64,000 nt of DNA from an uncultured Bacilli bacterium (GTDB lineage: Bacteria; Bacillota_I; Bacilli_A; RF39; UBA660), in NCBI GenBank assembly GCA_934096315.1, contig CAKOLT010000001.1, positions 43,412-107,411 of the forward strand, in the 5' to 3' direction. Shown piece after piece: positions 6,727 through 62,486 of this stretch. Each line of letters begins with the position of its first letter. Within the stretch, counting starts at the first letter, position 1. The position numbers and the translations under genes were made by a program. The notes under the pieces were generated by a model, which did no database searches, was not told the DNA's origin, and saw nothing but the letters and a program-made list of their open reading frames with translations.

Positions 6727-6736
6727 TATATCCTCC

Positions 6737-45297: not shown

Positions 45298-46799
45298 TTA
45301 TCCTTTAGAAACCGTGTATGGATTATCAATAGTGCCATCTCCTTCGGTTATTATTACATCTGGTTTTAGGGAGAAGACTGGCCAAACCGAACGCCAATAG
45401 TAGACGAGGTAGAAGTCGGGGACGACGATGCCTGTCGTGGAGACAACGAACGCAGTGTCAGTGTAGGACGAGAGAGGGAACAATAGCCACTGATAACTTG
45501 AATTGAATAGCCAATCACTATTCTTACAACTAGTATCATAATCTTTTAAATTAGTTCCATTAACACAAGTAGTCCCTGCTGCATATCCATAATCTGATGT
45601 ATACATTAAGGCTACTTTCCCTTCCCAATAATATGGTCTATTCTCATCATATCTTCCACTATTATTTCCTGTTTTTGTTCTTTCGTATGTATACAGGTGG
45701 TTGTTGTTATTGATGTTGAATTATGTCCTGCTAAATAATATCTAGAATCTCCAATCATCCTTTTAGCAGTACTACTTAATTTGTAATTAGTAAAGTCTAC
45801 ATCTCTTACACTTTGATTAATATAGTCAGGCATCTTCCCTGTATTAGTTGTATCACTCCACCAGATACCACTATTAAGCATAATCATAAGAGAGCTACCA
45901 CTAGTGGTACTATTACTATAGTTATTAGTTATATTATTTCTTGTCTCTGTTGGGGTTGCCCAGATATTTGTATATGTTCCATCTGACTTCATATCCCATG
46001 CAAAGGTATTTACTGTACCATCAGTAAGAACAGTTGCCTTTATTACCTTTAACCTATTGACTCCCTCTAACTCATCATATATACTACCAATAATTCTATA
46101 TAAATGCTTATCTGGACATGTCGTACTACCCTCAAAATCTAGACATACATAGTTATCAGGATTAGCCCCATAATACCTATAATCATCTACTGCAGGTATT
46201 TTCTCTCCAGTTACACTATCAGTTGCACTTATCTCATCATGATGTACCTTATACACTCCACTACCTGAGTCACCATTAGTTCCATCATCTAATGATTCTA
46301 TATATTCATTTGCAGGAATTACCTCTTCAGGTATCATCACCTTCCCACTAGCTAAAGTAAGTTCTCCCCCTTTAACATAACCTGCTAAAGCCCCTAGATT
46401 AACTTTAACTTCACTAGAAGAAGTATTACTAACTTCTATAGTTAAAGTTATATTACTTTCTTTATTAGCTATACCACTAGATTTATTCTTACTTCTCTTC
46501 TTATATACTATACTAAACTCTTCTGGTTTAGTAGTAGGACTAACCATCTCATAATAAATAACATAACTTATCTTCGCAGGATTAGGGTTATACATTACTA
46601 CATCATAATACCTAGTCTCGTTAGGTTCCACTACTAACTGTTTAATACTACTATTACCTATTTGAAATGTATAATCTAAATCCGTTGTACTTAGGGTATT
46701 CTCTACTACACTAGTATCATAAGCAAGTGTCCTATAAAGGGCAAATACCGTAAATGAAGTTAACACAATTAATAATACTATTACTACTCTTTTTATCAT
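45298..46799 (-). pseudogene. Secreted paralog-family protein A, split by a frameshift near 45690-45715 (402-aa and 102-aa ORFs are one gene)
   Basis: The 402-aa ORF ends out of frame (..TTTTCIHT). The other frame continues YTYERTKTGNNSGRYDENRPYYWEGKVALMYTSDYGYAAGTTC, matching paralogs B/C. Central ~200 aa nearly identical to paralog C. True start MIKRVV after GAAGGGAG. Confidence 0.6.
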
Positions 46800-46822
46800 T
46801 TTCTTACTCCCTTCAAGCATGT

Positions 46823-46872
46823 AAAAAGACTATGACAAACTAGAATACTCCTGTATTCTTACTGTCATAGTC
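46823..46872 (-). promoter_or_regulatory. Conserved terminator-like leader hairpin ~20 nt upstream of the paralog A RBS
   Basis: mRNA sense GACUAUGACAguaagaauacaggaguauucuaguuUGUCAUAGUC then UUUUU. Almost identical element at 54356-54408 ahead of paralog C. Confidence 0.5.
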
Positions 46873-46918
46873 TTTAATTCTTATACTATTTTTCTTATTT
46901 TTATTTAATTGGCTGTAA

Positions 46919-47010
46919 ACAGCCTTATGTGCCCATAAAAATTATGTGCCCATTATTAAATAAAAGCCTGAAAAATGGGCTTTTTTTTATTTTTTATGTT
47001 CGCATAATAG
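46919..47010 (+). repeat. Repeat module R1 (~92 bp): aacagccTTATGTGCCCAT x2 ... hairpin ... half-palindrome GTTCGCATAA. Inverted copy at 47461-47555
   Basis: Reverse complement of 47461-47555 aligns along its whole length except the central hairpin. Ends in half-site atGTTCGCATAAtag. Confidence 0.7.
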
Positions 47011-47139
47011 TTTGGTTAATTTTTGTATTTTTTCTCAAAAATACCTCTATCTCTAATATTTCTTTTTTGGTATTTTTATTTTCAAACTTTTATTTATTCT
47101 ATTTTTTTCTAATATTTCTTTTTTCTTTCCAAAAAAAAC

Positions 47140-47437
47140 CCTCATTTATATTTCTGTGGTTGTCAGGTTTTTATATTCAAATAATTCTTTTATTACAGTT
47201 AATGAAAAACCATCATCAATTAAATAAAATCCCTTATAATGCCTTATTATATGGCTAATACAAGAATTTCCTTATATGATTAAACCTCCATTTCTGTGTA
47301 TCATAACTGATACCTAATTTAAATAAATATTTGGCATATTGATTATACACACTATATATATGTTTACTGTAACTATAATTCTTAGTTACTAAATAATTTT
47401 GTGAAAACATAAATATCAATCCTCCTTTTATTTTCAC
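47140..47437 (-). pseudogene. Decayed tyrosine recombinase/integrase gene (N-terminal ~50 aa intact, then frameshifted, then truncated)
   Basis: After strong SD AAAGGAGGA: MFSQNYLVTKNYSYSKHIYSVYNQYAKYLFKLGISYDTQKWRFNHIRKFLY* fits the integrase SAM-like N-domain (S.NT..SY..D...Y..FL). Another frame continues ..RHYKGFYLIDDGFSLTVIKELFEYKNLTTTEI*. No catalytic domain remains. Confidence 0.4.
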
Positions 47438-47460
47438 AAAATAATAATATCACATAATTT

Positions 47461-47582
47461 ATTATGCGAACATAAAAAAAGAAAAAAGCCCAGAAAATGA
47501 GCTTATTTTTAATAATGGGCACATAATTTTTATGGGCACATAAGGTGCATTATGCGAACGTTCGCATAAACAGCCCCCCCCA
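47461..47582 (-). repeat. Repeat module R2 (inverted copy of R1) plus full palindromic core site S1 and C8 tract
   Basis: Begins with half-site TTATGCGAAC. At 47550-47569 the perfect 20-bp palindrome TTATGCGAACGTTCGCATAA flanked by ggtgcat / aacagcc. Followed by CCCCCCCC and aaacaaaTGTTCGtATTA. Confidence 0.7.
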
Positions 47583-47782
47583 AACAAATGTTCGTATTAA
47601 TGATTTTCCTTTAAAATATTTATTCATGAGGGGCTCCTTTCTTAATATATTTTGACTCCGTCAAAATATATTTCTTTCTTTACTATCCATATTTTACCAC
47701 ATATTTATATTCTCTTCAAGTACTTTTCTAATTTTTTTTTACAAGTATATATAATATTTTCGATTATATGAATTTTATCAAT

Positions 47783-47822
47783 ACTCTATTCCAAAAAAAA
47801 TGTCCAATTCCTCTTTTTTTGG
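47783..47822. terminator. Bidirectional hairpin terminator downstream of ruvA
   Basis: TATTCCAAAAAAAatgtccaattcctcTTTTTTTGGAATA (13-bp stem). Confidence 0.6.
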
Positions 47823-47858
47823 AATAACTAAACTAATACTTTAAAATAAATATATAAA

Positions 47859-48395
47859 CTAAACCATTAGTCTAAGAGCCTGTTTAACCTGCTCTTCAAG
47901 AGATAAACTACTATCTACTTTAGAAATAACCCTATTAATATCTATATTCTTATATCCTAAAGATAATAAAACTTTCCTTATATCATCTTTAGACTCCTCT
48001 CTTACTACAATCTTACCCTTTAAATCCAATATTATCTGTCTTGCAACCTTATCCCCTATTTTAGGAAATCTCTTCAAATAAGATAAATCACTTCCCTCAA
48101 TTGCCTCCTGTAACTTTGTTATAGAATCAACCGCTAACATTGGAAGAATAGTCTTAGGCCCTAACCCCTTAACAGATATTAACTTAATAAACATATCATA
48201 CTCTTCCTTACTCTTAAAACCATATAAAGTATATTCCTCCTGTCTTATATGAAAGTATGTATACACTATATATTCATTATTAACTTTATAATAATAAGGA
48301 TTAGCAACATATATAAAATATCCAATATTATTATTTTCTATTACTATATAACTACTAGTTACTTCTGTAACTACCCCCCTGATATAGGCAATCAT
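47859..48395 (-). CDS. ruvA: Holliday junction DNA helicase RuvA
   Basis: MIAYIRGVV N-terminus, HhH GLGPKTILP, C-terminal domain III. Confidence 0.85.
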   Translation of the reverse strand: MIAYIRGVVTEVTSSYIVIENNNIGYFIYVANPYYYKVNNEYIVYTYFHIRQEEYTLYGFKSKEEYDMFIKLISVKGLGPKTILPMLAVDSITKLQEAIEGSDLSYLKRFPKIGDKVARQIILDLKGKIVVREESKDDIRKVLLSLGYKNIDINRVISKVDSSLSLEEQVKQALRLMV

Positions 48396-49540
48396 TATTT
48401 CATACTCCTTATATCATTAGTAGTTAACTCTTTTAATACACTACTATCTATTGTTAAAGTCATAGAATCCTTAATATTCTTTTCCTTTATAGAATCTTTT
48501 ATCATAATATTTAAAAGCTCTTTATAGGAAATATTAGCATCCTCCCAAAGATGATGGGCAAAACAATTAGGAATAGGATTAATCTCATTAACATATAACT
48601 TCTTACCATCATATAGAAAATCTATCCTACAAAAACCAGTATTAAATATCAAATTAAAGGTCTTCTTAGAAATATCTATTATTTCTTCTTTAAATTTACT
48701 ATCTAAATCTTTAGGAAATGATCTCTTAATTGTATCATTCTCCTCATTATCCTTATAACATTTATCTTTATACTCCCTAAACTCTACCTCGCAGTTAATT
48801 AATTCAATAGAACTAGTTAAAAACTTCTCATTAGTACGAAGTATAGATATATTATACTCTACTCCCTTACACATTCTCTCTATAACTATCTTCTTATCAT
48901 AAGCAAGTACTCTCTTAATCGTAGAATCCAATTCCTCTTTTTGTTTAACAACCTCTATACCTACACTACTACCAAGACAAGCAGGTTTAATAATTAAAGG
49001 ATAAGGAAGTTTATCTATTCTTTTAAATAACTCCTCTTTATTATTCAAATAATCACTTTCATAAAACCAAATATAATCAGTAACGGGTATATTATTACTC
49101 CTAAGTATCTCTTTAGTAAATACCTTATCTTGACATAATGAAGAAGAATATATAGAATCCCCTACAAAAGGTATACCTATTAAATTAAGATAACCCTGCA
49201 AAGTACCATCCTCACAATTAGAACCATGTACCATAGGAAAAGCAATATGTATCTCATTAACCTCTCTTTTTAATAATCCTGTAGACTGAAGAACAAACCT
49301 ACCTGACTTATTAACTAAATTAACTTTAGTACCATATTTCTCAATTAAATTATAATTATTAAAACTATCTAAAAACCTAAACATTCCTCCAGAATACCAA
49401 GTTAAATCTTTAGCAATATATATAGGTACTACCTCATAATAATCATTATCAATATGTTCCATAGCTTGAAGAGCAGTAATAATAGATATTTCATGTTCTA
49501 CACTTTGCCCTCCAAAAATAACTCCTACTTTTAATTTCAT
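48395..49540 (-). CDS. ddl: D-alanine--D-alanine ligase
   Basis: KVGVIFGGQSVEHEISI, ATP-grasp motifs. Start MKLKVG after GAGAGGTG. Confidence 0.85.
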   Translation of the reverse strand: MKLKVGVIFGGQSVEHEISIITALQAMEHIDNDYYEVVPIYIAKDLTWYSGGMFRFLDSFNNYNLIEKYGTKVNLVNKSGRFVLQSTGLLKREVNEIHIAFPMVHGSNCEDGTLQGYLNLIGIPFVGDSIYSSSLCQDKVFTKEILRSNNIPVTDYIWFYESDYLNNKEELFKRIDKLPYPLIIKPACLGSSVGIEVVKQKEELDSTIKRVLAYDKKIVIERMCKGVEYNISILRTNEKFLTSSIELINCEVEFREYKDKCYKDNEENDTIKRSFPKDLDSKFKEEIIDISKKTFNLIFNTGFCRIDFLYDGKKLYVNEINPIPNCFAHHLWEDANISYKELLNIMIKDSIKEKNIKDSMTLTIDSSVLKELTTNDIRSMK

Positions 49541-49724
49541 ATAACACCTCTCAATACTAATTTTAGCAGATAATACCATTAAAGTCTATAGTTATAAGGG
49601 TAAAATTTTAAAATATAATCGATGTAAAGATTAACTATAAAAACTTAAATAAATTTTAGTCAAGTTAGATGAATTTTTAAGAATTTATAGTATAATAGTG
49701 TTATATAACATTAGGAGGTACTTT

Positions 49725-50753
49725 ATGAATAATGAATTAATTAGTAATGATAATAAATTTAATAATTTTTTTAATAATATAAAAGATTTAGTTATCACTA
49801 GTAGGAATAAAGTTTATCAAACAGTTAATACAGAAATGCTTAATCTATATTGGAATATAGGAAAAATAATTATGGAAATACAGCAAGGTGATGAAAGAGC
49901 AAGTTATGGAGATGCTATATTAGATAAATTGTCTATTAAACTAACTAATGAATTCGGTAAGGGATTTTCTTCAAGAAATTTAAGAACTATGAGAAAATTC
50001 TATTTAATGTATCCAAATTGGAAGACAGTGTCTGCCAAATTAAGTTGGTCTCATTATTTAGAACTTATTAAAATAGAAGAAAAACCTAAAAGAAACTTTT
50101 ATTTAAATGAATGTATAAACTCTAAATGGAGTGTTAGAGAATTGCAAAGACAAAGAGATTCACTACTTTATGAAAGATTAACTATATCTGCTGACAAAGA
50201 AAAAATACTTGAGCTATCCGAAAAAGGACAAATCTTAAAAACTAGCAAAGATTTAATAAAAGATCCATTCGTACTAGAGTTTTTAGATATAAAAGAAAAC
50301 ACAAATTATCTTGAAAACGACTTAGAAAAAAACATTATAGAACACTTAAAAGAATTCTTATTAGAATTAGGAAAAGGTTTTAGTTATGTTGGAAACCAAG
50401 TTAGACTCACTTTAGAAGAAGATCATTTTTACCCAGATTTAGTTTTTTATAATAGACTTTTAAGATGCTTTGTTATTATTGATTTAAAAATAGGAAAAGT
50501 ATCCCATCAAGACATTGGACAAATGCAAATGTATGTTAACTACTATGATAGAGAAATTAAACAAGATGATGAAAATAAAACAATTGGAATATTGTTATCA
50601 ACTAATAAAAATGAAACCATTGTAAAATATACCTTACCAGAAGATAATAAAACAATATTTTCTACTGAATATAAATTGCATATGCCAACAGAACAAGAAC
50701 TAATTAATGCCATTGAAGAAGAAAAGAAAAACTTTGATTTAAATAAAAATTAA
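49725..50753 (+). CDS. DUF1016/YhcG-family PD-(D/E)XK nuclease-like protein
   Basis: N-terminal YhcG_N-like region (LYWNIGKIIMEIQQGDERASYGDAILDKLSIKLTNEFGKGFSSRNLRTMRKFY). C-terminal D..(V/I)IDLK motif (EDHFYPDLVFYN...VIIDLKIGK). Start MNNELI after AGGAGG. Confidence 0.65.
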   Translation: MNNELISNDNKFNNFFNNIKDLVITSRNKVYQTVNTEMLNLYWNIGKIIMEIQQGDERASYGDAILDKLSIKLTNEFGKGFSSRNLRTMRKFYLMYPNWKTVSAKLSWSHYLELIKIEEKPKRNFYLNECINSKWSVRELQRQRDSLLYERLTISADKEKILELSEKGQILKTSKDLIKDPFVLEFLDIKENTNYLENDLEKNIIEHLKEFLLELGKGFSYVGNQVRLTLEEDHFYPDLVFYNRLLRCFVIIDLKIGKVSHQDIGQMQMYVNYYDREIKQDDENKTIGILLSTNKNETIVKYTLPEDNKTIFSTEYKLHMPTEQELINAIEEEKKNFDLNKN

Positions 50754-50761
50754 CTTATAAC

Positions 50762-50808
50762 ATATTATCAAAAAAGAAACCTCTGATTTATAAGGTTTCT
50801 TTTTTTTA
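50762..50808. terminator. Bidirectional terminator between DUF1016 gene and paralog B
   Basis: AAAAAAGAAACCtctgatttataaGGTTTCTTTTTTTT. Confidence 0.6.
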
Positions 50809-50820
50809 ATAATATTAATT

Positions 50821-52734
50821 TCATGATAGGACATAAGGATTATCAACAGAACCTATACCACCATTAATCATAACATCTGATTTTAAATAGAAAGTAGGAA
50901 AGACTTTAAACGTAGTATTATAATAGTCACTACTACCAATACCTCCGGTTGTTAAAATTGCATATGCAGTAATAGCATTAGAATTAGCAGGAGATATTAC
51001 CCAATTAGATCCATTTCCTATAAGCCATCCTTTTTTACTACATTCTTTACTCATATTTTTGTTATATAAATCAAGTGAATAACAAACATTTCCTATAGTA
51101 TATCCATAATCTGACGCATACATTAAAGCTACTTTTCCATCCCAGTAGTATGATCTATCAGAATCATATCTTCCACTTCTAGTGCCTAGTTTAGTCCTTT
51201 CCCTAGTATAATATGCATGTGCAGTACTAGTCCCAGTTCCCTCAATAGAACTTAAATAAAACCTACTAGTGGCAATTAATGCTTTAACCTTATCACTAAT
51301 TTTATATTCATCCAAACCAAAGTTTACAGTCTTAGTTTGCATTCCTCCATCATAATAATATATAATACCCTCTGTTCCATTCCACCATAAACCCTTAGAA
51401 CTATCTTCTGAATTTAACATCTGCATTAATGTACTACCACTTTCAGTACCCGCTATTTCTGTCGCATTAGAGTATCCAGTTGCAGTATCTGTTACTGGTG
51501 CCCAGATATTTTTTCTTGAAGGATAATCAAAATTAGCTGTAGTCCAGTTCCAAGCAAAACTATCTATTACTTCATTATTAGAATCACTAACCTTAAGGGA
51601 AGTCGCTTTAACCACCCTTAACTTATAACTATTAGATAAATCCTCCCAGATAATACCTATTATCCTATATAAATGCTTATCTGGACAAGACTCACTACTT
51701 TCCATATCTAAACATATATAATTATCAGGACTATCCCCATAATATCTATAATCATCTACCGCTGGTATTACATTCCCAGTAACACTATCAGCACTACTAA
51801 TTTCATCATGATGTACTTTATATACTCCACTACCTACATTACCCCCACTACCATCATCTAACTTCTTAATATACTCTATTAAACCTGGACTAACCCATTC
51901 ATACTTAGCAATATTACTACTACCTGCAGTTATATTTAATATCTTTGTATCATTACTACCAACCTTAATATTAGACCCCTCTACTGTATAACTATCATCT
52001 TTAGTTAATGTAAAACTACCACTTGCAATAACAGTATTACTACTGTTTTTTACTTCCACAGTATGCTCTCCTAAAGGAACATTTACTAAAGTATAATTAC
52101 CACTAGAATCAGTAGTAGTAGTTATTGGATCACTATGTACAGTAATTAAAGCATTAGGTATTGGGTTATTACTACTATCAAGAAGAGTACCCCTTATAGT
52201 ATAACTATCTATAACTAGTGCATTTTCTCCACTAGCCCCAAGAATAAAATTAAATGTTTTACCACCCATATTACTAGGATTATCCATATTACCATCAATA
52301 TAAATATATATAGTATACTTACTAGTAGTATCCTTAGTTAATGTAGTAGTATCTAAAAGTGTATACACTTTATTAGTAGTAGCACTACTAAAATCTCCCT
52401 CATTAATAAGAGTATCCCCCTGATATAATTTCCATACAAAAGAACTATGTTTTAACTCTTCACTAATACTAACTACCTTTAAAGTTAGTTTAGCAGTAAC
52501 TCCACTACATTCAGGGGTCATACTTACTTCCTTAGAAATAACATTACTAGTATCATCTTTACTAAAAGAAGGACCAAAACTTTGTCCAATTATATCCGTT
52601 CCATCATTATAAGTAATATTACATCCCTCAATATTAAATGTAACATTAGTATTACTACTACTCCATCTTAGATAAGCATAAGTGCCTCCAAGAGATAACA
52701 TAATAATTAATATTAATAATATTTTTCTTTTCAT
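50821..52734 (-). CDS. Secreted paralog-family protein B (637 aa; carries a carboxypeptidase-regulatory-like/Cna-B-type insert)
   Basis: Signal/anchor MKRKILLILIIMLSLGGTYAYLRW. Conserved core GSGVYKVHHDEIS..DSVTG.VIPAVDDYRYYG..PDNY.CLD.E.S..CPDKHLYRIIG. C-terminal SDYGY..G..C...DNPY module shared with A and C. Confidence 0.7.
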   Translation of the reverse strand: MKRKILLILIIMLSLGGTYAYLRWSSSNTNVTFNIEGCNITYNDGTDIIGQSFGPSFSKDDTSNVISKEVSMTPECSGVTAKLTLKVVSISEELKHSSFVWKLYQGDTLINEGDFSSATTNKVYTLLDTTTLTKDTTSKYTIYIYIDGNMDNPSNMGGKTFNFILGASGENALVIDSYTIRGTLLDSSNNPIPNALITVHSDPITTTTDSSGNYTLVNVPLGEHTVEVKNSSNTVIASGSFTLTKDDSYTVEGSNIKVGSNDTKILNITAGSSNIAKYEWVSPGLIEYIKKLDDGSGGNVGSGVYKVHHDEISSADSVTGNVIPAVDDYRYYGDSPDNYICLDMESSESCPDKHLYRIIGIIWEDLSNSYKLRVVKATSLKVSDSNNEVIDSFAWNWTTANFDYPSRKNIWAPVTDTATGYSNATEIAGTESGSTLMQMLNSEDSSKGLWWNGTEGIIYYYDGGMQTKTVNFGLDEYKISDKVKALIATSRFYLSSIEGTGTSTAHAYYTRERTKLGTRSGRYDSDRSYYWDGKVALMYASDYGYTIGNVCYSLDLYNKNMSKECSKKGWLIGNGSNWVISPANSNAITAYAILTTGGIGSSDYYNTTFKVFPTFYLKSDVMINGGIGSVDNPYVLS

Positions 52735-54332
52735 CTATTATACACCATCCCTTCACCACTGCTAAATATTACGTCAGATTTCAGACTAAAGACTGGACGG
52801 ACCGCACCCTCGACGCTGACGTCGTCGTAGCTGCCGTTGATGGTGCCCTCCGGAATGACGCCCCACGCACCAAAAGGGTATGCAGTGCGGGGAGACTGTA
52901 ACCATTCCCATCCTTTTGGTGTTAACCAGTCTTTTTTATAACACTCATTATTATGATAATTAAGTGCTTCTTTTTGACATGTATTTCCTGCTGCGAATAC
53001 ATAATCTGATGGATACATTAGTCCTACATTTCCTTCCCAATATAATGGTCTGTTTTCATCATACCTTGTAGGTATGCTATCACTTCTTACTCCTGTCCTC
53101 TCCATTTTATATGTTGTGAATCCATTCTTATTGCCATTTCCCGGATGTGCTTCCGCTAAATAATATCTAGAGTCCCCGATCATACTTTTAACAGTACTAC
53201 TTAACTTATAATTAGTAAAGTCTACATCTCTTCCACTTTGGTTATCCCTATCATATACCTTCCCTATATTAGTAGTATCACTACACCAAATACCACTATT
53301 AAGCATTATCATAAGTGAGCTACCACTAGCAAGTGTATTACTATAGTTATTAGTTATATTATTTCTTGTCTCTGTTGGTGTTGCCCATATATTTGCTTTT
53401 GTTCCATCTGACTTCATATCCCATGCAAAGGTATTTACTGTACCATCAGTAAGAACAGTTGCCTTTATAACCTTTAACCTATTTGTCCCCTCTAACTCAT
53501 CATAAATACTACCTATTATCCTATATAAATGTTTATCTGGGCACGCAGTACTACCTTCAAAATCTAAACACACATAGTTATCAGGATTAGCCCCATAGTA
53601 TCTATAATCATCTACCGCAGGTATTACTCCCCCAGTTACACTATCAGTACTACTTATCTCATCATGATGTACTTTATATACTCCACTACCTGAGTCACCA
53701 TTACTTCCATCGTCTAAACTCTCGACAACATCAACTGCAGGAAATCTTCCCAAAGCAGAGTTAGTCCCCTCTACTGTTAGAGTAAAATCAAAACTCTGAT
53801 TCTGCATATTACTATCATTCTCATTATTACCATCTATCCATAGATATAGTATATATTTACTTAGAGTAGTAGTTAACTTCTTATTACTATCTGTACTATC
53901 ACTAGATAAAGTTACTAACTCTATTACATCACTACTACTCTTACCATTAAAAGTACCTTCACTTACTACAGTAGTATCCTTAACTAGTGTCCATTTAAAG
54001 TCTGATACTGCTAGATACTGACTTATTTCATTAATATTTAACTTAATATTAACTGTAGCTGGATCAGTTACATCATCTTTTAATTTAAGTTTAATACTCT
54101 TCTTTATAGCATCCACACTACTATAGCCTGAAGCTGGCACTAAATTAGCTCCCGTTATATCAGCTCCATCATCAAGCTGCAATATTGCCCCAGATACTGT
54201 AAAACTAATATTAGTATTCTGCATACTATTCCATATAAAATACCCAAAAGCAACACTAATTCCTGTAAGTACTGTAGCAATTAGTACTGATACTACTGCT
54301 AATTTTGGGGTTATCTTCTTATTTTCTTCCAT
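52731..54332 (-). CDS. Secreted paralog-family protein C (533 aa)
   Basis: Signal/anchor ..AVVSVLIATVLTGISVAFGYFIW. Central 200 aa ~95% identical to paralog A at protein and DNA level. N-terminal region (NTNISFTVSGAILQLDDG) resembles the SipW-type/TasA-camelysin mature N-terminus. Confidence 0.7.
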   Translation of the reverse strand: MEENKKITPKLAVVSVLIATVLTGISVAFGYFIWNSMQNTNISFTVSGAILQLDDGADITGANLVPASGYSSVDAIKKSIKLKLKDDVTDPATVNIKLNINEISQYLAVSDFKWTLVKDTTVVSEGTFNGKSSSDVIELVTLSSDSTDSNKKLTTTLSKYILYLWIDGNNENDSNMQNQSFDFTLTVEGTNSALGRFPAVDVVESLDDGSNGDSGSGVYKVHHDEISSTDSVTGGVIPAVDDYRYYGANPDNYVCLDFEGSTACPDKHLYRIIGSIYDELEGTNRLKVIKATVLTDGTVNTFAWDMKSDGTKANIWATPTETRNNITNNYSNTLASGSSLMIMLNSGIWCSDTTNIGKVYDRDNQSGRDVDFTNYKLSSTVKSMIGDSRYYLAEAHPGNGNKNGFTTYKMERTGVRSDSIPTRYDENRPLYWEGNVGLMYPSDYVFAAGNTCQKEALNYHNNECYKKDWLTPKGWEWLQSPRTAYPFGAWGVIPEGTINGSYDDVSVEGAVRPVFSLKSDVIFSSGEGMVYNR

Positions 54333-54355
54333 ACAATTCTTCCTCTCTTACACAC

Positions 54356-54408
54356 ATAAAAAGACTATGACAAACTAAAATACCCTTGTATTCTTACTGT
54401 CATAGTCT
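54356..54408 (-). promoter_or_regulatory. Conserved terminator-like leader hairpin upstream of the paralog C RBS (second copy)
   Basis: GACUAUGACAguaagaauacaaggguauuuuaguuUGUCAUAGUC then UUUUU, ~25 nt before GAGAGGAAG SD. Confidence 0.5.
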
Positions 54409-54444
54409 TCCATTTCTATTCTCATTATCTTACCAAACTTGGTA

Positions 54445-54515
54445 ATTATATTAATGGGCACATAAGGCTGTTTATGCGAACGTTCGCATAATGCACCCCC
54501 CAACAAATGTTCGCA
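54445..54515. repeat. Repeat module R3 with palindromic core site S2, in opposite orientation to S1
   Basis: taATGGGCACATAAGG ggctgtt TTATGCGAACGTTCGCATAA(54472-54491) atgcacc CCCCCC aacaaaTGTTCGCATTAT. The 34-bp core with arms is the exact reverse complement of the S1 core. Outer flanks are direct. Confidence 0.7.
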
Positions 54516-54625
54516 TTATAGATTTTTTTGGAGATTCTATATCCATTTTACCCATTATTTCTCTATTTATATTATATAAATTTAACATATAAAATCACCA
54601 AAAATCCTTTCTTATTCTTTTACTA

Positions 54626-55699: not shown

Positions 55700-56958
55700 T
55701 TCTCCTCCTTACCTTTAAAAAAGTTATCAAATAGTTTAGTAATTTGTTTTGTACTACCAGAAGTATCATTAGTTATCTTACTTTTTCTTTTAGGGTTTAC
55801 CAACCTATCTTCATCTTCTTCTGTTATCATTGAATAATTTTTCCCCCTAGATTCCATTTTATTTATATAATATTTTATCATACCAAGTGCGGTAATATAT
55901 TTATTATCACGAACTCCTAAGGTGCTTTCTGTATATATTATAACATCTTTCCCCATATTTTCAAATACTAAATTTTTAAAAGATTTAATTTCTGTAACTC
56001 CCCCGGTTATTATTATATAATTAACTGGGTGTTTTGTTAATATCATTATTTGTTTTTTTGCATATTCTAATATTTGATTTAACCTACTCATAACTACTTC
56101 GGTAACTTCTAATTGATTAAGTTTAATTATTTCTCCATAGTTATTTTTTATCTCAAATAATTCTCCTACCCCAATAAATCTTTTATGAGCAGATGCAAAC
56201 TTTTCTTTAATAACTCTACCATCAAACATATTTATTCCAAATATATATGATAAATCTTTATCTACATTAACTCCCCCTATTTGAATAGTTTCTGTATTCA
56301 TTATTTTACCACGATTAAATATAGATACATTAACAGTCTCATGCCCTATATTAACTATAGCCCCAACTTTTTTATCAGTAATATTATTTCTAACCTCATA
56401 ATAGTCTGCAATACCTGATAAAGTAATATCTACTACTTCTAATCCAGCATTTTCTACAGTACTAATTACTGAATATATATTCTTTTTAGGAACACTTACC
56501 ATAATACCATTAATATCTAATTTATCAGTAGCAAGTCCAATAATATTATCTTCCTTCTTTTCTCCATTAACTATATATTCTAAAGGTATAACTGTAACTA
56601 ATTCATAATCAGACTCTAACTTATTATACACACTATCTTTAATTACCTTACTAATATCTTCACTAGTTATATTATCAGTAATTCTAACAGAGCCAGTTAC
56701 ATATGTAAACTTTGCATTATAATCAGGAACACCTACTATTACTTTTTTTACATTAAAACCCAATTTTTCATTAATTATCTTAATTCCATCTTTAATAGCA
56801 TTAACAGCTAAATTAGAATCTACTATTAAAGCCTTTCTAATTCCTTTTGCTTTTATACTATGTGATGCTAAAACATAAATATTATTATTTAAATATTCTG
56901 CCGTAACAAACTTAATAGAATCAGATCCAATATCAATACATGTATATATTTTCTTCAT
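55696..56958 (-). CDS. ftsA: Cell division protein FtsA
   Basis: Actin-like ATPase fold ([11 protein letters not shown] ... [10 protein letters not shown]). Confidence 0.9.
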
Positions 56959-57110
56959 AGCATCGACTCTCCCTAAAATGATACAAATTAATTATACAAT
57001 AAATCCATATTATTTGCAACAAATTATTACATTTTTTTTATTAAAATAAAAGAAAAGACACAAAACCTTGTATCTTTGTCTATCATTCATTTACTTTAAA
57101 TGACACTATA

Positions 57111-58508
57111 TTATATGTTTTTTTTCTTCTTTTTATTACTATCTTTCTTTATTATATCTTCTACTAAAGCATCACCCTCTTCTTCCTCTTTAATTATATT
57201 TCTTGGATCCTTTTGTTTAGAAGAAACCACCTTTTTACTCTTCTTCTTTTTAGAAATATTATTCATAACTATACTTAAAATAATAACAAGTAATATTGCA
57301 GAAAAGAAAGCAGATATAATTATAAGATAATCTTTATATTTACTAGCTTCATCTTTATATAATGCTGATATTTCATCATTATATCTCTGGACAGTCTTCT
57401 CTTTACTATCATACATATATAAACCTTTAACCCCATCAGACACATTCATAGCATAAAATATATAATAATCACTATCACTATTTAATCTATAAGCATCTAT
57501 CTTATCATCATTATACTTAAAACTACTCTTTATATAATTTTTAGGTATCTTATTCTTATCATCTATTATATATAAAATAACATTCCCAAAATTATATTCA
57601 TTATATAATGTATATTTATTATCTTTATATATATAATAATTAATCTTACCCTTAGAATCCTTTAAGGCTACTAGAGTATAATTAATTTTTTTATTAGTAT
57701 ATGCTAAAACATCCTCATTATCTATCTTAACAGTAGTCTTCTCATAATATTCACAAGGAGGATCTATCTGTCCTTCTTTTCTAACTATAGTATATTCTTT
57801 ACCCCCGACCTTAACATTTATAGGTTTTAACTCTTTAACTGTAACATTAATAACATAAGTTCTTTTATTACCATTCTCTGCCGTAACAACTACTTCTATT
57901 TTATTAGCACCCTCAGATACATTAACATCTCCTACTCCACTAACCGTAGCAGTATTATCTTCTGCTACTGCACTTATTTTAACAGTACTAACATCATTTT
58001 CAACCTCTATATTATACTCTAAAGTATCTTTATTAAATTCTATACTAGAATTCTCTATAGATAAACTCTTTAAATAATTATTAGAAGAATATGTCTTTGG
58101 AGTTACTTTAGCAGGGGCATTAACTGTTACACTAACACTACCATTACCTAAACCTATCCAGTCTCCTGAAGACATATTAGTCATCCTAACACCACTTGTT
58201 GTGCAAGTTACCGTACCAGTAGAACTAGGTTTAATAGAAAGACTATAACTTTTTTGATATACACTATTACTAGAATCATCAAATCTTAAATCAAGACCAC
58301 TAGAAACACCAGCACCACTACAAGATAAACTTCCTTCTATACTTACTATTGGACTATCTGAAGATACTGTCACATATATACTAGTTCCAGAACCCTTAGT
58401 AATAGCCTTACTAGCAGAACTAACACTTACCCCATTAGCATATACACTAGGATTTAATATTACAAAACCCAAAAATATAAATAATAATTTATATAACTTT
58501 TTATTCAT
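57111..58508 (-). CDS. Cell-surface protein: signal peptide, cadherin-like beta-sandwich domain, C-terminal TM anchor and K-rich tail
   Basis: NYLKSLSIENSSIEFNKDTLEYNIEV..TVKISAVAEDNTATVSG matches the Clostridial cadherin-like domain pattern. Hydrophobic segment then charged C-terminus. Confidence 0.5.
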   Translation of the reverse strand: MNKKLYKLLFIFLGFVILNPSVYANGVSVSSASKAITKGSGTSIYVTVSSDSPIVSIEGSLSCSGAGVSSGLDLRFDDSSNSVYQKSYSLSIKPSSTGTVTCTTSGVRMTNMSSGDWIGLGNGSVSVTVNAPAKVTPKTYSSNNYLKSLSIENSSIEFNKDTLEYNIEVENDVSTVKISAVAEDNTATVSGVGDVNVSEGANKIEVVVTAENGNKRTYVINVTVKELKPINVKVGGKEYTIVRKEGQIDPPCEYYEKTTVKIDNEDVLAYTNKKINYTLVALKDSKGKINYYIYKDNKYTLYNEYNFGNVILYIIDDKNKIPKNYIKSSFKYNDDKIDAYRLNSDSDYYIFYAMNVSDGVKGLYMYDSKEKTVQRYNDEISALYKDEASKYKDYLIIISAFFSAILLVIILSIVMNNISKKKKSKKVVSSKQKDPRNIIKEEEEGDALVEDIIKKDSNKKKKKNI

Positions 58509-58519
58509 TTTTTTACCTC

Positions 58520-60826
58520 CTAAAATTGATTTATCGTAGAATATCCATAATACTGTCTTAATATTGCTAAATAATCAAGTTTATTTACTTCCCCATCTCT
58601 ATTAGCATCCGCTGCCTTCTTATAAACACCACTATAAGTTGTATATCCATAGAACATTCTAAGTACCGCCAAATAATCTAATTTATCAATAACACCATCC
58701 CCATTAACATCACCATAAATAACTACTTCATACTTCTTACTATTTATTCCATTAGCTACATATATAATATCTCCAGTTTTTAATATACCATCATTCTTTA
58801 ATTTACCATCTCTATCATATACATTAACATAAGCAAGCGATGACACATTCTTAATATTATTTATTAAACTAGAAGCAGACGTACTAGGACCAATTCCATA
58901 TATTTCATTATCATTATATTTAACCCCACTATTATTCATAATAGTAGCAATACTAGGTCTATCCACTGTCCCCTCATACTTTATATTGATGTTATAACTC
59001 CTAACTCTTCCATTAGTAGCATTTACACTAACAGTAAGTTTATTTACATCACTATTTAAAGATATATCTCCAGTACCACTTATTTTAGAACTACTAACCA
59101 AAGAAGTAGCATCTAACCTTACACTATTTGTATTAACAGGAAGTACTATATCATATTCTTGCACATCATAAGCAAAACCACTAATAACATTACCGTTTAT
59201 CTTTAATTCTTTTAAATAATTATTAGGATTTCCCAGTTTAGGAGACGTAACAGCATAAGCTGGCATATTATCATATACAGGTATAATAAATGAAATATCA
59301 CTATTTAAATATGATGGCAAATACTTAGCATAAGTTGAAAATGCTGTATTAGTCTCTCCAATTGGAGCCTGAAGATTAGCCATATATTGATGAGTATAAT
59401 CACCATCACTAGAAGACACATCAAACCTCTCATAATATAATGTATCTTGATTAGCATCAACATATGCCTTAAGAAACTCTATACCCCCTCTAATAGCTTT
59501 AGAAGGCGTATCCCAACCATGATTTATTGCATAACTCATACCATTAAGTATTTTATTATTACCAGTTACCGCAATATTATAAAAATTATACCATCCCGAA
59601 TAAGAAGTACCATTAAGTGTAAAAGACGCCCCTAAACGAGGATCACTTGTTTTAACACCTCTCATTTCCTGATATATCCTACTAGCTATATGTACAGAAT
59701 CTATTCCTAAAGAAGAACTTACATTAACTATATCATCATAAACACTTGAAGAATAATTACCATACACACTCTGCCATACACCCATTGGACTTAATATAGC
59801 ATGAATTAATTCCTTATTATGCTCATTACTCCCCCTTAAATTCTTAAAAGCAAAAATATATTTCTCATTCAAATAATTACGAGGATCCATATAAAACGCT
59901 ATAGCCTCTGTAGAAGCATTATACCAACCAGCTTCATTACTAGCCTCAAAATATGTATTAGTAAATGGATTATAATGACCATAATTAGTAGACAAATAAT
60001 TCTCATCAAAAGCATTCTTTGGAAGAAGACTTCTTTCAGAATATGACTCTTGTGCTACAGCCTCTCCAAAATCTATATTTATCTTCTCAGCTTCAAATGA
60101 CCAGTTAGGATGCCTAGCATGAATTTCCGCTAAATATGGTAAATAACTCTCTGGAAAATTCTTTGCCCTTAATGTATTATAATAATTCTCAAGCCCCCCA
60201 TTATTAGCATAATAATTATTAGCAGTACTTGATAACTTATTAGTACTTACATAATAACCACAAAGCCATCCCGAAGCTCCATCTTTATTAGTAAGATTAT
60301 ACCAATACCTACAAGAGGATGACGTATATTCTTTTACCTCATTTATTTTAACAACATCTCCACACTTAGCATGCACACCAGTAGTAGCTCCTCCACCCGG
60401 ATTCTGATAATATATCCAATCTGCTGTATCCTCATAACAAGCAACAGTCCCATCACCATCAACATAACTATCATAATCAGATTTAACATAAACATTATCA
60501 CTACTAGTATTCCTTAAGCCATTAATAGATATAAATTCTCCGCAAGAATACCCTGTATAACTATTACCATTCTTATTAACTCTAACCTTCATCCATACAC
60601 TACATGAAGAATTACTACCAGCATTAGTATTTAATATTGTAACATTATCTCCATATGATAAAGAAGTTAAAATATTATTATCACTTGAAGTATCAATACT
60701 TGTCCTAACCCTAAGGGGCTTTGTACAATTAACCGTGCCAGTAATATCAGCATAAACAAAAGTACTATATATAAACATAAACATTATTATAAGTAATATT
60801 TTAGATAAACATTTCATAACCGTCAC
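58520..60826 (-). CDS. Secreted peptidoglycan hydrolase-like protein with two SH3b-like domains, cadherin-like domain and C-terminal type-I dockerin
   Basis: Dockerin duplicated segments GDVNGDGVIDKLDYLAVLRMFYGY and ANRDGEVNKLDYLAILRQYYGY. Glucosaminidase-like central region. Signal peptide. Confidence 0.55.
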   Translation of the reverse strand: MTVMKCLSKILLIIMFMFIYSTFVYADITGTVNCTKPLRVRTSIDTSSDNNILTSLSYGDNVTILNTNAGSNSSCSVWMKVRVNKNGNSYTGYSCGEFISINGLRNTSSDNVYVKSDYDSYVDGDGTVACYEDTADWIYYQNPGGGATTGVHAKCGDVVKINEVKEYTSSSCRYWYNLTNKDGASGWLCGYYVSTNKLSSTANNYYANNGGLENYYNTLRAKNFPESYLPYLAEIHARHPNWSFEAEKINIDFGEAVAQESYSERSLLPKNAFDENYLSTNYGHYNPFTNTYFEASNEAGWYNASTEAIAFYMDPRNYLNEKYIFAFKNLRGSNEHNKELIHAILSPMGVWQSVYGNYSSSVYDDIVNVSSSLGIDSVHIASRIYQEMRGVKTSDPRLGASFTLNGTSYSGWYNFYNIAVTGNNKILNGMSYAINHGWDTPSKAIRGGIEFLKAYVDANQDTLYYERFDVSSSDGDYTHQYMANLQAPIGETNTAFSTYAKYLPSYLNSDISFIIPVYDNMPAYAVTSPKLGNPNNYLKELKINGNVISGFAYDVQEYDIVLPVNTNSVRLDATSLVSSSKISGTGDISLNSDVNKLTVSVNATNGRVRSYNINIKYEGTVDRPSIATIMNNSGVKYNDNEIYGIGPSTSASSLINNIKNVSSLAYVNVYDRDGKLKNDGILKTGDIIYVANGINSKKYEVVIYGDVNGDGVIDKLDYLAVLRMFYGYTTYSGVYKKAADANRDGEVNKLDYLAILRQYYGYSTINQF

Positions 60827-60892
60827 ATCCTACAGTTATAATTATAACAAAAAGTGACAATAATTGCAATTAAAAAATGAAAAAAATAATAA

Positions 60893-60925
60893 TAAAAAGA
60901 CTATACCACATACATGGTATAGATC
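60893..60925 (-). terminator. Conserved hairpin terminator after Rpn gene 1 (copies at 62027-62058, 62447-62480, 63590-63625)
   Basis: CTATACCAtgtatgTGGTATAG followed by T-run. The same module follows each gene of the array. Confidence 0.6.
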
Positions 60926-60934
60926 TTTATAAAA

Positions 60935-61864: not shown

Positions 61865-62030
61865 GTTACTCACCTCCTTCTGAGAATAACTACCCTCACT
61901 ATAATATCTCCAAAGTGAGGTCAAAAATTCCCCCCTGTGTCTGAATTATTACCATAGATTATGCAATTATTACCAAAAATAGTGTAAAGTAAGTGTAAAG
62001 TAAGGTATTTTTGACAAAAAAAGACTATAC
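61865..62030 (-). promoter_or_regulatory. Conserved ~165-bp promoter/leader shared by the Rpn paralogs (second copy 63429-63595)
   Basis: Sense strand TTGACC-15-TATAGT. The -10 region is embedded in the inverted repeat CCTCACT-N13-AGTGAGG. The two copies are >90% identical. Confidence 0.45.
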
Positions 62031-62058
62031 CACCTACTTGGTATAGTTCTTTATAAAA

Positions 62059-62355
62059 TTAGAATAAATTTAACTTAATAGCATTTATTTCTGATAGGCT
62101 TAGTTTAGTTACTTCTGATATATCTTTCTCTGGATATCCTCTCTTGAGTAAGTTTTTAGCAACCATAACTTTTACTTTTTTTCTGCCAAGAGCTTCTCCA
62201 ATAGCAATACCACGTTTCTCACCTTTGTACAAAGCCTCAGACTTTGTAAATGCTAGTTCCATCTCACGTTCTTCTTTAGCTAATCTAATACCAAAACATA
62301 GATCCTCATACTTTTTTTGTTTCTCAAGGGCTTTTAAGATTTTATCTGCATTCAT
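62059..62355 (-). CDS. Free-standing DUF4351-only small protein (Rpn C-terminal domain homolog, RpnS-like)
   Basis: MNADKILKALEK..EEREMELAFTKSEALYKGEKRGIAIGEALGRKKVKVMVAKNLLKRGYPEKDISEVTKLSLSEINAIKLNLF. Own SD GGGAGG. Lacks the nuclease domain. Confidence 0.55.
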   Translation of the reverse strand: MNADKILKALEKQKKYEDLCFGIRLAKEEREMELAFTKSEALYKGEKRGIAIGEALGRKKVKVMVAKNLLKRGYPEKDISEVTKLSLSEINAIKLNLF

Positions 62356-62486
62356 TTTTTTTCCTCCCATTTACTATTTATGATACAATTATATACCATT
62401 ATTCTGTGTTTTACAACAAAAATATTAAAAATGCTATAAATTACAAAAGTACTATACCACCAGATGAGTGGTATAGTACTTAATTA

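Follow-up and report, generated by a model that had tools for sequence, protein, structure and literature searches.

The window, by which we mean the whole 64,000-nucleotide stretch analysed here, carries three paralogous genes, A, B and C, as had been predicted from the letters alone; all three are on the minus strand (Table 1). Gene A is a pseudogene wherever it occurs, broken into fragments of 402 and 102 aa by a 1-nt deletion near 45697, the frameshift that the original prediction had noticed, and nothing resembling its N-terminal ~165 aa was seen in the other family members retrieved. Gene C overlaps the start of gene B by 4 nt, an arrangement which suggests that C and B form an operon. 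The family is large and unnamed, with neither a Pfam domain nor any sequence relative in the PDB. In A, B and C, which are membrane-anchored, an N-terminal beta-sandwich domain is followed by a conserved central domain, and the variable region described below lies in the C-terminal domain. Structure prediction did not confirm the C-type-lectin fold that such targets are expected to have: the AlphaFold models reached a pLDDT of about 47, and a fold search was meaningless.

The housekeeping genes ruvA and ddl, originally described as trapped in the locus, do lie between two family genes, but nothing shows that they have been mobilised. A ruvB fragment is indeed present roughly 32 kb from ruvA, at about 15.3-16.1 kb. 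The YhcG/DUF1016 nuclease gene is probably an insertion, since GC skew is locally lost there.

Table 1. Positions of genes, repeats and leader elements in the window.
Feature	Position	Strand	Description
Gene A	45298-46820	-	family paralog, pseudogene
Gene A variable region (VR)	45365-45471	-	51% GC, matches the template repeat
Leader hairpin 4, gene A	46826-46874	-	AAGACTATGACA...TGTCATAGTCTT, then UUUUUA
9-bp direct repeat TAAACAGCC, left copy	46916-46924	+	partner at 47567-47575
Internally deleted RIT element	46923-47545	-	623 bp, end to end of terminal inverted repeats
RIT terminal inverted repeat, gene A side	46923-47031	+	CCTTATGTGCCCAT, TTATGTGCCCAT, terminator-like hairpin, ATGTTCGCATAA
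ritC remnant	47074-47253	-	last ~60 codons, in another frame than ritA
ritA remnant	47258-47410	-	first 51 codons
RIT terminal inverted repeat, upstream side	47438-47545	-	same sub-repeat order
Palindrome S1	47550-47569		two head-to-head copies of the inner RIT sub-repeat
Short upstream ORF, gene A leader	47550-47627	-	25 codons, contains the poly-G tract
Poly-G tract, gene A leader	47574-47581	-	C8 on the plus strand; G9 in L016 and L024
Promoter P1 and leader hairpin 1, gene A	47644-47719	-	conserved
ruvA	47859-48395	-	housekeeping
ddl	48395-49579	-	housekeeping
YhcG/DUF1016 PD-(D/E)XK nuclease gene	49698-50753	+	only real plus-strand gene in this part of the window
Gene B	50821-52734	-	family paralog with inserted CarboxypepD_reg domain
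Gene C	52731-54332	-	intact family paralog
Gene C VR-like segment	52773-52937	-	57% GC, second class
Leader hairpin 4, gene C	54361-54409	-	as in gene A
Partial leader, gene C	54445-54546	-	P1 and hairpin 1 absent
Parts of the gene C leader			upstream ORF 54546-54472; G6 54501-54496; S2 54472-54491; one CCTTATGTGCCCAT 54467-54454
DGR template repeat (TR), 3' part	63950-64000	-	AAC-rich, ends GGGGGTTCTGTGCGGCCAGCCC

The paralogs are mosaic as proposed, and more extensively than the original prediction had it: along A, C and three additional family genes from two genomes, stretches with 90-100% nucleotide identity alternate with others at about 45-50%. A and C do share a central block, but it is not nearly identical, covering 571 nt at 88.6% identity, and other paralogs match gene A just as closely there. 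The alternation results from recombination among dispersed paralogs, which exchange blocks within and between genomes.

Comparison of the target genes with a template repeat shows that this paralog family consists of DGR targets and that the DGR is the family's own diversification machinery. In a DGR, a reverse transcriptase copies the adenine-rich TR, making errors at adenines, and the 3' end of the target gene is overwritten by the copy. Between the gene A VR and the TR, 17 of 18 core mismatches fall at TR adenines and 1 elsewhere (Fisher p=2e-8); the corresponding counts at TR adenines and at other bases are 15 and 1 for the P0002 VR and 12 and 1 for the P0009 VR. The VR segments stand at 51-57% GC against 28% GC for the genome. 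The gene A VR is one codon longer than the TR, and no VR is collinear with the TR without an indel (A, P0002 and P0009 +3 nt each, D -4); indels within VRs have also been documented (PMC5758913). In gene A the IMH-equivalent 3' end has decayed, with 5/18 non-A mismatches. The TR lies at the right edge of the window, beyond the coordinates originally flagged yet accounting for them, and its remainder is past the window end; it is complete in L027, where it translates as SSNSSNTDNAFNVNTTGNVNNNNNVNNGGSVRPAL. Both this repeat, at 63.95-64.0 kb, and the GC-rich VRs within the divergent C-terminal modules had been overlooked.

The VR-like segment of gene C ends GCGGTCCGTCCAG, exactly like the VR and TR of the DGR in the related genome L025, and no TR matching it was found within the window. 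In L025 the gene order is RVT_1 reverse transcriptase, family protein, 103-aa ORF, TR and bAvd, and 18/18 VR/TR differences are at TR adenines. A unit made up of a 115-aa ORF and the TR, together with about 200 nt of downstream sequence, is 73% identical between that DGR and the one in this genome, for which neither a reverse transcriptase nor Avd was found; the sole contig past the window edge ends within the next target gene. When gene C was aligned with 58 family members drawn from 1604 hits, column entropy across the 59 sequences was highest at gene C residues 476-525, where the consensus is mostly undefined in a pattern that, judged by eye, is like the TR Asn codons. The C-terminal segment of gene B is AT-rich (30% GC) and has no nucleotide similarity to the TR, and is therefore not a current DGR target; gene B has lost the variable-region feature or never had it. 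A and C carry rewritten GC-rich segments, yet these are static in today's strains: both VRs are identical in all assemblies and so give no sign of current diversification.

Multi-target DGRs such as that of Treponema denticola, with several, partly non-adjacent targets, likewise have an adenine-rich TR, 3' VRs that differ from the TR only at its adenines, a 3' boundary that is GC-rich and IMH-like, and target paralogs scattered in the genome (PMC5758913). Compared with that type, neither a reverse transcriptase nor Avd was seen for this genome, the target family is without Pfam domain or PDB relative, A and C look like retired targets, and the targets share a conserved leader with a poly-G tract.

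The repeats said to bracket a set of cassettes instead belong to the 5' leaders of genes A and C, where they lie in direct orientation, and alignment shows them to be two copies of a ~300-nt promoter/leader common to at least six family genes (instances in A, C, L024, L026, L022 and L025). The parts follow one another in a conserved order: promoter, hairpin, short upstream ORF with poly-G, two small hairpins, terminator-like hairpin and ribosome-binding site of the gene. In gene A, P1 reads TTGAAG-17-TAAAAT (47719-47691), hairpin 1 spans 47673-47644, and a conserved AAAGGAG ribosome-binding site precedes the short ORF, whose stop codon lies within palindrome S1; hairpin 4 is just upstream of the gene's ribosome-binding site. 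The predicted promoter of gene C, TAAACA-18-TATAAT (54474-54445), is created at an insert junction. Both C-tracts listed in the original prediction, of 8 C and 6 C, are present as the poly-G tracts of these leaders.

The gene A leader is interrupted by 642 bp flanked by copies of TAAACAGCC, and with these removed it aligns end to end with intact leaders. The palindrome, the ATGGGCACATAA repeats and the "fossil recombinase" of the original prediction are one internally deleted RIT (recombinase-in-trio) element, which keeps terminal inverted repeats of about 108 bp, collinear in architecture with the ends of the intact RIT L030, as well as the first 51 ritA codons and the last ~60 ritC codons. 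The decayed tyrosine recombinase is real. The ritA remnant is 50% identical to residues 1-50 of P0243, an intact RitA-type recombinase of 311 aa with a Phage_integrase domain (PF00589, 73 bits), and the ritC remnant, in a second frame, is 45% identical to residues 255-314 of L030 RitC (E=1.5e-15), retaining HxxRH and the TTEI region and having a stop in place of the catalytic Tyr codon. P0243 contigs measure about 1.0-3.2 kb, and the four long enough (L030-L033) consist essentially of three overlapping tyrosine-recombinase genes, in L030 bounded by perfect inverted repeats. The element, whose insertion the leader alignment shows, would have entered the loop of the second hairpin in the gene A leader and then undergone an internal deletion of about 2.5 kb. 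The gene C leader has, at this position, only a 26-nt insert and one terminal repeat copy. The native leader sequence at the insertion point is similar to the repeats at the ends of the element, which makes homing to that site probable.

RIT elements were first described in Cupriavidus metallidurans CH34 and are described as predominating in alpha- and beta-proteobacteria (PMC3414803; PMC10214605). As in those elements, ritA- and ritC-type frames occur here in the right order and orientation between terminal inverted repeats, and L030, the closest intact relative, has the three overlapping recombinase genes that define a RIT. Only about 110 of about 950 codons survive in the present copy, a dead derivative; its terminal repeats contain three TTATG-type sub-repeats and measure about 108 nt, compared with 34 bp in the archetype (PMC3414803; PMC10214605), its host is a low-GC, Bacilli-like gut bacterium, and its insertion site is a hairpin loop within a conserved gene leader.

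We consider it very probable that the locus combines three ordinary things, DGR target paralogs, a dead RIT element and a shared promoter/leader. It holds new members of already known kinds, and a new recombination-based variation system is not supported. The features listed in the original prediction were real in the sequence and were confirmed in part, some having been overstated or wrong. Its view of an accessory, variable surface-protein locus with paralog mosaics and recombinase-type repeats is correct; the site-specific recombination or cassette-exchange mechanism is not supported. The claim that no annotated system type of this kind exists for Firmicutes falls because DGRs are well documented and reported to be significantly enriched there; their detection rate per genome is also higher in human-gut samples (PMC8144416).

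Exactly two copies of the 20-bp palindrome TTATGCGAACGTTCGCATAA are present, at 47550 and 54472 (0 expected), and five of ATGGGCACATAAGG when at most 2 mismatches are allowed (0.26 expected). As anticipated, these are recognition-type repeats of a tyrosine-recombinase element with a dead recombinase among them; S1 sits 4 nt outside the RIT terminal inverted repeat, on one side only. The original prediction took S1 and S2 for active recombinase sites that invert or exchange cassettes of A, B and C, giving antigenic variation. This is almost certainly not the case, even though S1 and S2, once one of them is reverse-complemented, agree at 100% over a 32-nt core around the palindrome, their 4-nt flanks resemble reciprocal hybrids between two types of hairpin, mosaicism is seen among the paralogs, and in L024 this leader and element adjoin a different sequence upstream, with a sharp boundary at about 47642. 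The only recombinase is the remnant of about 110 codons with a stop for its catalytic Tyr, and just two sites exist, both in 5' leaders, flanking no cassettes and with none between the modules that differ, while the mosaic boundaries fall within coding sequence, far from both. Outside the flipped core, the surrounding repeats are in direct orientation, so recombination between them would delete ruvA and ddl. Instead of the expected inversions or cassette shuffling, every assembly recovered has the same consensus arrangement, in a comparison of two long contigs base by base and three more reported as similar places, with L024 crossing the element in an unchanged orientation. The flipped 4-nt flanks are not explained by a simple insertion-and-deletion history.

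A promoter switch for gene A, in which the 623-bp segment is flipped by a recombinase encoded elsewhere, would fit the long inverted repeats flanking the segment (45 nt at 96%, extending to about 108 nt), the promoter-like site inside it (47470-47441) and the inward-facing terminators in both repeat arms. We find it highly improbable, as the segment is homologous end to end with RIT termini and terminal gene fragments, the gene it would control is the pseudogene noted above, and the window, L016, L017 and L024 all show the segment in one orientation, with contigs crossing the repeats unbroken. Known switches of this sort (fimS/FimBE, Hin/hix, Clostridioides difficile RecV, mycoplasma vsa/vpma) share inverted repeats and a tyrosine-recombinase gene beside surface-protein genes; unlike them, this locus lacks both an intact recombinase and a site between variable modules, it shows a single orientation in all the assemblies, and its repeat-flanked segment is a transposon-like relic. 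It is also unlikely that the palindrome and half-sites are LacI-type or LexA-type operators regulating the family genes rather than recombination sites. The identical 20-mer does follow directly after -10-like boxes in unrelated phyla and lies upstream of a LacI-type N-terminus in L003, and the gene C palindrome overlaps a predicted -35 element. The Firmicute LexA box is CGAAC-N4-GTTCG, and the neighbouring CGAACATTTGTT(T/G)G resembles it, perfectly so in L022. However, both the window and L026 have a degenerate form of the box, the intact leaders of L022, L025 and L026 are without the palindrome, no LacI-type helix-turn-helix motif was found within the window, and the half-site is the inner sub-repeat of RIT terminal repeats, kept in an unrelated RIT copy.

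The single lead at the locus, as a candidate switch, is the poly-G leader, for which our literature search found no report of a conserved counterpart in DGR targets. As an addition to the DGR, RIT and leader reading rather than a competitor to it, the tract may tentatively be regarded as a slipped-strand phase-variation switch: its length sets the frame of the short ORF, and would alter read-through or translation of the downstream DGR target. Two frames end about 40 nt before the terminator-like hairpin, and the third runs 31 nt into it. The tract ranges from 6 to 15 G, with six lengths (6, 8, 9, 11, 12 and 15) in six leaders, and 8 versus 9 G is the sole difference in 12 kb between two assemblies, a one-base homopolymer difference that could be an assembly error. 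Intact leaders cover all three frames with stops where predicted, the short ORF has a conserved ribosome-binding site and ATG, and hairpin 4, with a U run after it, scores as stable (z=-5.1); on the other side, the RNA structures are without covariation support and the short ORF peptide is not conserved. Poly-G/C contingency loci of Campylobacter and Neisseria (PMC8355987, PMC5084427) likewise have a G/C homopolymer of at least 8 in the 5' region of a surface-protein gene, differing in length between otherwise identical strains. Their tracts lie in a promoter spacer or the main ORF, whereas the tract here, a candidate for switching, lies in a short upstream ORF before a terminator-like hairpin.

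Although not every part of it stands, the original prediction for this locus is largely correct in what it observed. Its interpretation, a site-specific recombination or antigenic-variation system, is replaced here by two known kinds of element, a target family of diversity-generating retroelements (DGRs) and a degenerate recombinase-in-trio (RIT) element, together with a duplicated gene leader. The genes concerned, A, B and C, belong to an unnamed surface-protein family: C has >1600 homologues in gut metagenomes, none with a Pfam domain, and searches of A and C against Pfam returned no match. The decisive clue linking this family to DGRs was L025, a locus of a related genome in which a family member has an RVT_1 reverse transcriptase gene on one side and a bAvd (accessory protein) gene on the other, and in which a 98-nt repeat pair differs at 18 positions, every one of them an adenine of the downstream copy (18 versus 0). 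L025 is recognizable from this organization as a textbook DGR, and the members of the family are now assigned as DGR targets. DGRs are reported to be significantly enriched in Firmicutes and to turn up at a higher per-genome rate in human-gut samples (PMC8144416). The Avd gene of L025 is followed, at 6558-6835, by tandem repeats of ~50 nt in two pairs (87-88% identity).

A template repeat (TR) is present in the genome studied here. Its 3' end forms the last ~50 nt of the window, and the full TR lies at about 1273-1385 of L027, a contig that extends 1.3 kb past the window edge. Ahead of the TR in L027 stands a 115-aa ORF with a homologue in the same position in L025, and upstream of the 115-aa ORF lies a further family gene, D, the end of whose variable region (VR) matches the GC-rich 3' end of the TR perfectly; D, just outside the window, is the only gene to match GGGGGTTCTGTGCGGCCAG without mismatch. 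In the VR of A, 17 of 18 core mismatches fall at TR adenines and 1 elsewhere (Fisher p=2e-8), and the VR cores of two family proteins from the same samples follow suit (15 of 16 mismatches in P0002 and 12 of 13 in P0009). This genome holds both the TR and VRs whose substitutions against it fall almost wholly at its adenines. The VR segments of A, P0002, P0009 and C have 51-57% GC in a genome of 28% GC, while the equivalent segment of B has 30% GC and no nucleotide relation to the TR. For C, no matching TR is known; in a 59-sequence family alignment, entropy peaks at its residues 476-525, where the undefined consensus positions follow, as judged by eye, the Asn-codon pattern of the TR. In a DGR target the VR would be expected to sit in a C-type-lectin (or Ig) fold; the two AlphaFold2 models made here were too poor to show such a fold, being confident only for an N-terminal beta-sandwich (pLDDT ~47 in the C-terminal half), and neither Foldseek, used with these models, nor sequence and profile searches of the PDB gave a match.

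Several observations bear on whether these targets are still in use. Compared with the TR, every VR of this genome has an indel of 3-4 nt; the VR of D is 4 nt shorter, which produces a frameshift in the assembly, and may be a heterogeneous VR that has collapsed. Both VR indels and DGRs whose targets are several and non-adjacent are documented (PMC5758913). The GC-rich VR boundary (IMH), which must be intact for current retrohoming, has decayed in A, where 5 of 18 positions carry a non-adenine mismatch (2 in P0002 and 3 in P0009). Moreover, neither the VR of A nor that of C differs between the window and L016-L019, four other assemblies of the locus, and there is no sign of ongoing diversification; all differences among these sequences across 12 kb consist of poly-G length and a few SNPs outside the VRs. 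Given the decayed IMH of A, the invariant VRs and the VR indels, A and C are best described, on sequence grounds, as retired DGR targets. Neither the reverse transcriptase nor the Avd of L025 had a tblastn match in the window or in any locus from these samples, the contig ending ~1.3 kb past the window inside D. Directly downstream of the TR, where L025 holds its Avd gene, a PD-(D/E)XK_2 gene (Rpn-like, transposase-type) is present twice in full and once as a fragment (~78% DNA identity); these copies may have displaced the Avd gene.

Coordinates of features at the locus (window positions).
Feature	Coordinates	Strand	Description
Gene A	45612-46820 plus 45298-45606	minus	family paralog in two pieces
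VR of gene A	45365-45471	minus	
Degenerate RIT element	46923-47545		
Terminal inverted repeats	46923-47031 / 47438-47545		
Segment flanked by 9-bp direct repeat	46925-47566		642 bp, in leader of A
Palindrome copy S1	47550		in leader of A
Poly-G (C/G) tract	47574-47581		in leader of A
CCCCUC motif	47631-47636		in leader of A
ruvA	47859-48395	minus	
ddl	48395-49579	minus	
YhcG/DUF1016 nuclease gene	49698-50753	plus	sole real plus-strand gene in region
Gene B	50821-52734	minus	family paralog
Gene C	52731-54332	minus	family paralog; ftsZ then ftsA come after it
Palindrome copy S2	54472		in leader of C
Two large secreted proteins	57111-60826	minus	between ftsA and transposase-like genes
PD-(D/E)XK_2 gene copies	60935-63488	minus	two full copies, one fragment
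3' end of TR	63950-64000	minus	

Compared at the nucleotide level, A, B, C and three more family genes, drawn from two genomes, show a patchwork of identity. The mosaic structure reported for the paralogs is therefore genuine, but it is family-wide rather than specific to A and C. For example, C is 98-100% identical to P0002 in parts of its N-terminal half and ~50% identical in C-terminal pieces; the C-terminal part of A is P0002-like (82-94%), that of C is P0003-like (78-98%), and the first ~165 residues of A match nothing among the family members retrieved. The central block of A and C had been described as nearly identical; a shared block does exist (571 nt), but at 88.6% identity; it is simply the conserved core of the family, and other paralogs are equally close to A in this block (84-96%). 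DGR targets, as this case shows, can multiply over time into mosaic, partly retired paralog sets. A is indeed frameshifted, by a 1-nt deletion near 45697, and ruvB does lie apart from ruvA, a ruvB fragment being ~32 kb off. GC skew drops to ~0 at the YhcG/DUF1016 nuclease gene, which suggests that this gene is a separate insertion between ddl and B. Beyond ftsA, the two large secreted proteins (465 aa with a cadherin-like domain and 765 aa with a dockerin domain) are odd neighbours for a division cluster.

The palindrome and repeats that drew attention to the locus are real and well above chance, with exactly 2 occurrences of the 20-bp palindrome (0 expected) and 5 of ATGGGCACATAAGG at <=2 mismatches (0.26 expected). 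In the leader of A, an inverted repeat, 96% over 45 nt and traceable to ~108 nt, encloses the recombinase fossil, its terminal arms pairing in three stretches (45 nt, 96%; 19 nt, 89%; 50 nt, 78%). The fossil's 60-aa ORF has no Pfam match; a weak Phage_integrase match (E=0.002) over an HxxRH...T-T-x-x-Y region in a second frame just downstream appears only when the two frames are joined. A word-indexed protein search with the fossil recovered the fossil itself and nothing more. An exhaustive HMMER search with its 51-aa N-terminus matched P0243, a 311-aa recombinase (PF00589 at 73 bits; 50% identity over residues 1-50) encoded on nine small contigs, six of which are ~1.0-3.2 kb. In the four of sufficient length (L030-L033), the contig is made up of three tyrosine-recombinase genes that overlap (311, 302 and 337 aa; overlaps of 13 and 8 nt in the nearest intact relative), and L030 ends in perfect inverted repeats, so that these are RIT elements by definition, the class being defined by a trio of tyrosine-recombinase genes (PMC3414803; PMC10214605).

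Measured against these intact elements, the second fragment in the window is 45% identical to RitC residues 255-314 (E=1.5e-15), and both repeat arms are collinear with both ends of L030, sub-repeat by sub-repeat, in the shared order CC-TTATGnG..., five bases, TTATGnG..., hairpin and then TTATGTTCnCATAA. The palindrome is the inner sub-repeat (GTTCGCATAA) taken twice, head-to-head, and lies 4 nt outside the repeat arm. The ritA and RitC matches and the collinear arms identify the segment as a degenerate RIT element that has lost everything between ritA codon 51 and the last ~60 codons of ritC. Thus ritA codons 1-51 and the end of ritC survive and ritB is absent; the ritC remnant retains HIIRH and has a stop codon at the position of the catalytic Tyr (TTEIY). 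With only these fragments left, the element is a remnant and not a functional RIT member. The predicted fossil tyrosine recombinase is accordingly upheld by the P0243 and RitC matches, but as a dead RIT remnant and not as part of a working variation system. No match to the element was found by blastn in phage and plasmid collections, the 60-aa ORF matched plasmids by tblastn only at noise level, and exact-pattern scans gave 0 matches both for the double 12-mer and leader hairpin in JGI metagenomes and for the double 12-mer and palindrome in viral contigs.

The repeats thought to bracket the locus as recombination sites are, by the following comparison, a duplicated gene leader. A 76-nt direct repeat lies immediately upstream of the A and C start codons, and a promoter and leader of ~300 nt is common to family genes in three other loci, L022, L025 (there upstream of a bona fide DGR target) and L026. 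In order, it comprises TTGAAG/TTGAAA-17-TATAAT/TAAAAT, an AT-rich hairpin of 13-14 bp, AAAGGAG and the ATG of a short ORF, a poly-G tract, the hairpin GGTGCA-GTTA-TGCACC, the hairpin TTACCAAnnTTGGTAA, a long hairpin followed by UUUUUA, and the ribosome-binding site of the gene. In A, a 9-bp direct repeat (TAAACAGCC) flanks the 642-bp segment, and without this segment the upstream region aligns end to end with the other three leaders; the second leader hairpin of A is altered on both arms (GGCTG-TTTA-CAGCC). The leader of C begins at the short ORF only and carries, at the same position, a 26-nt insert (palindrome plus ACAGCC) beside one copy of the terminal repeat, the junction of which forms the best predicted promoter-like site on the minus strand (TAAACA-18-TATAAT). 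As the native leader sequence at the insertion point (TTATGCACCCAT) resembles the RIT end repeat (TTATGTGCCCAT), we infer that the RIT element homes to this leader site, an apparent site preference. In the literature covered, mobility of RIT elements was still to be demonstrated (PMC3414803). The leader of A adds an insertion site for RIT elements in a gut bacterium that is low in GC and Bacilli-like.

Other assemblies of the locus were recovered by exact-protein look-up among ENA metagenome assemblies. Compared with the window over 12 kb, L016 shows a single difference, one extra G in the C/G tract; L017 has four SNPs, all in A, and L018 and L019 have one SNP apiece. Within 56000-64000, a 12-nt indel separates the window from L016 (otherwise 99.85% identical). 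Examined for inversions or cassette shuffling, every contig recovered had the same gene arrangement, at the level of assembly consensus, where rare variants would escape. This single arrangement, the lack of an intact recombinase in the window and the confinement of the sites to two leaders argue against the proposed inversion or shufflon-type phase variation, and a false lead towards a new recombination-based antigenic-variation system at this locus is thereby removed. Inversion of the 47.5-54.5 kb interval was also discarded, GC skew there being the same as elsewhere in the window. S1 and S2 have their 4-nt palindrome flanks interchanged, as if halves had been exchanged between the copies, and such hybrid flanks would fit S1 and S2 as attL and attR of an integrated circle of 6.9 kb with ruvA and ddl on it; this idea has no other support, is at odds with the intact hairpin left on the gene A side of the element, and was rejected.

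Movement of a different kind is evident between strains. L024, a contig from a sample that also holds this strain, contains the short ORF, S1, the RIT remnant and the beginning of gene A with 100% identity apart from G9, behind a different promoter region: between L024 2891-3826 and window 47744-46809 there are 18 differences, all in the first ~100 nt. The boundary is sharp, near 47642, the segment lies downstream of an ABC transporter, and the corresponding site is empty in a related strain (L028). It follows from this junction and the empty site that family genes and their leaders are moved or recombined between strains, for which homologous recombination across the conserved leader is the simplest route; no link between such movement and the dead recombinase was found.

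Two features keep the locus of interest: the poly-G leader of DGR targets and the apparent RIT site preference. Poly-G lengths in six leaders are 6 (C), 8 or 9 (A), 11, 12 and 15; G8 (window, L017) and G9 (L016, L024) occur in otherwise identical sequence, a difference that could be assembly error. All three reading frames are represented among the three intact leaders; two of the frames stop 40-45 nt before the long hairpin, and the third runs 31 nt into it. These lengths and frame-dependent stops fit a slipped-strand switch acting through the short ORF, a reading we hold only tentatively. More doubtful still is the fuller proposal of a phase-variation device for DGR targets combined with RIT homing to a mimic of its end repeat. 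In such a device, poly-G length would determine whether ribosomes stop before the terminator-like hairpin or run into it, and each paralog would switch on and off stochastically, on top of DGR hypermutation of the tip. To judge from the shared leader and its variable tract, hypermutated surface proteins may be phase-variable in their expression as well, and RIT homing to the leader, if true, would provide the first natural target site for a poorly understood element class. Leader RNA folds lacked covariation support, and an Rfam search over 44.5-55 kb gave chance matches only. A conserved leader peptide was considered and dropped, as the peptide is not conserved and frames differ between leaders. 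The short ORF has an invariant CCCCUC between its ribosome-binding site and ATG, in the same columns in L022, L025 and L026; this motif is predicted to pair with the poly-G tract and so enclose the ORF, a pairing without covariation.

A LexA site (Cheo box, CGAAC-N4-GTTCG) next to the promoter was likewise rejected, the box being perfect in L022 only and degenerate in most copies (CGAACATTTGTTTG and CGAACATTTGTTGG in the window, CAAACATTTGTTGG in L026). A scan of species-representative genomes for the palindrome returned unrelated genomes only, a side lead and not homology. In these (L001-L015; Cohnella, Massilia, Anaerolineae and Kiritimatiellae), the identical 20-nt palindrome directly follows -10-like boxes and, in L003, precedes a LacI-type N-terminus, and from these contexts it is probably a LacI-family operator there.
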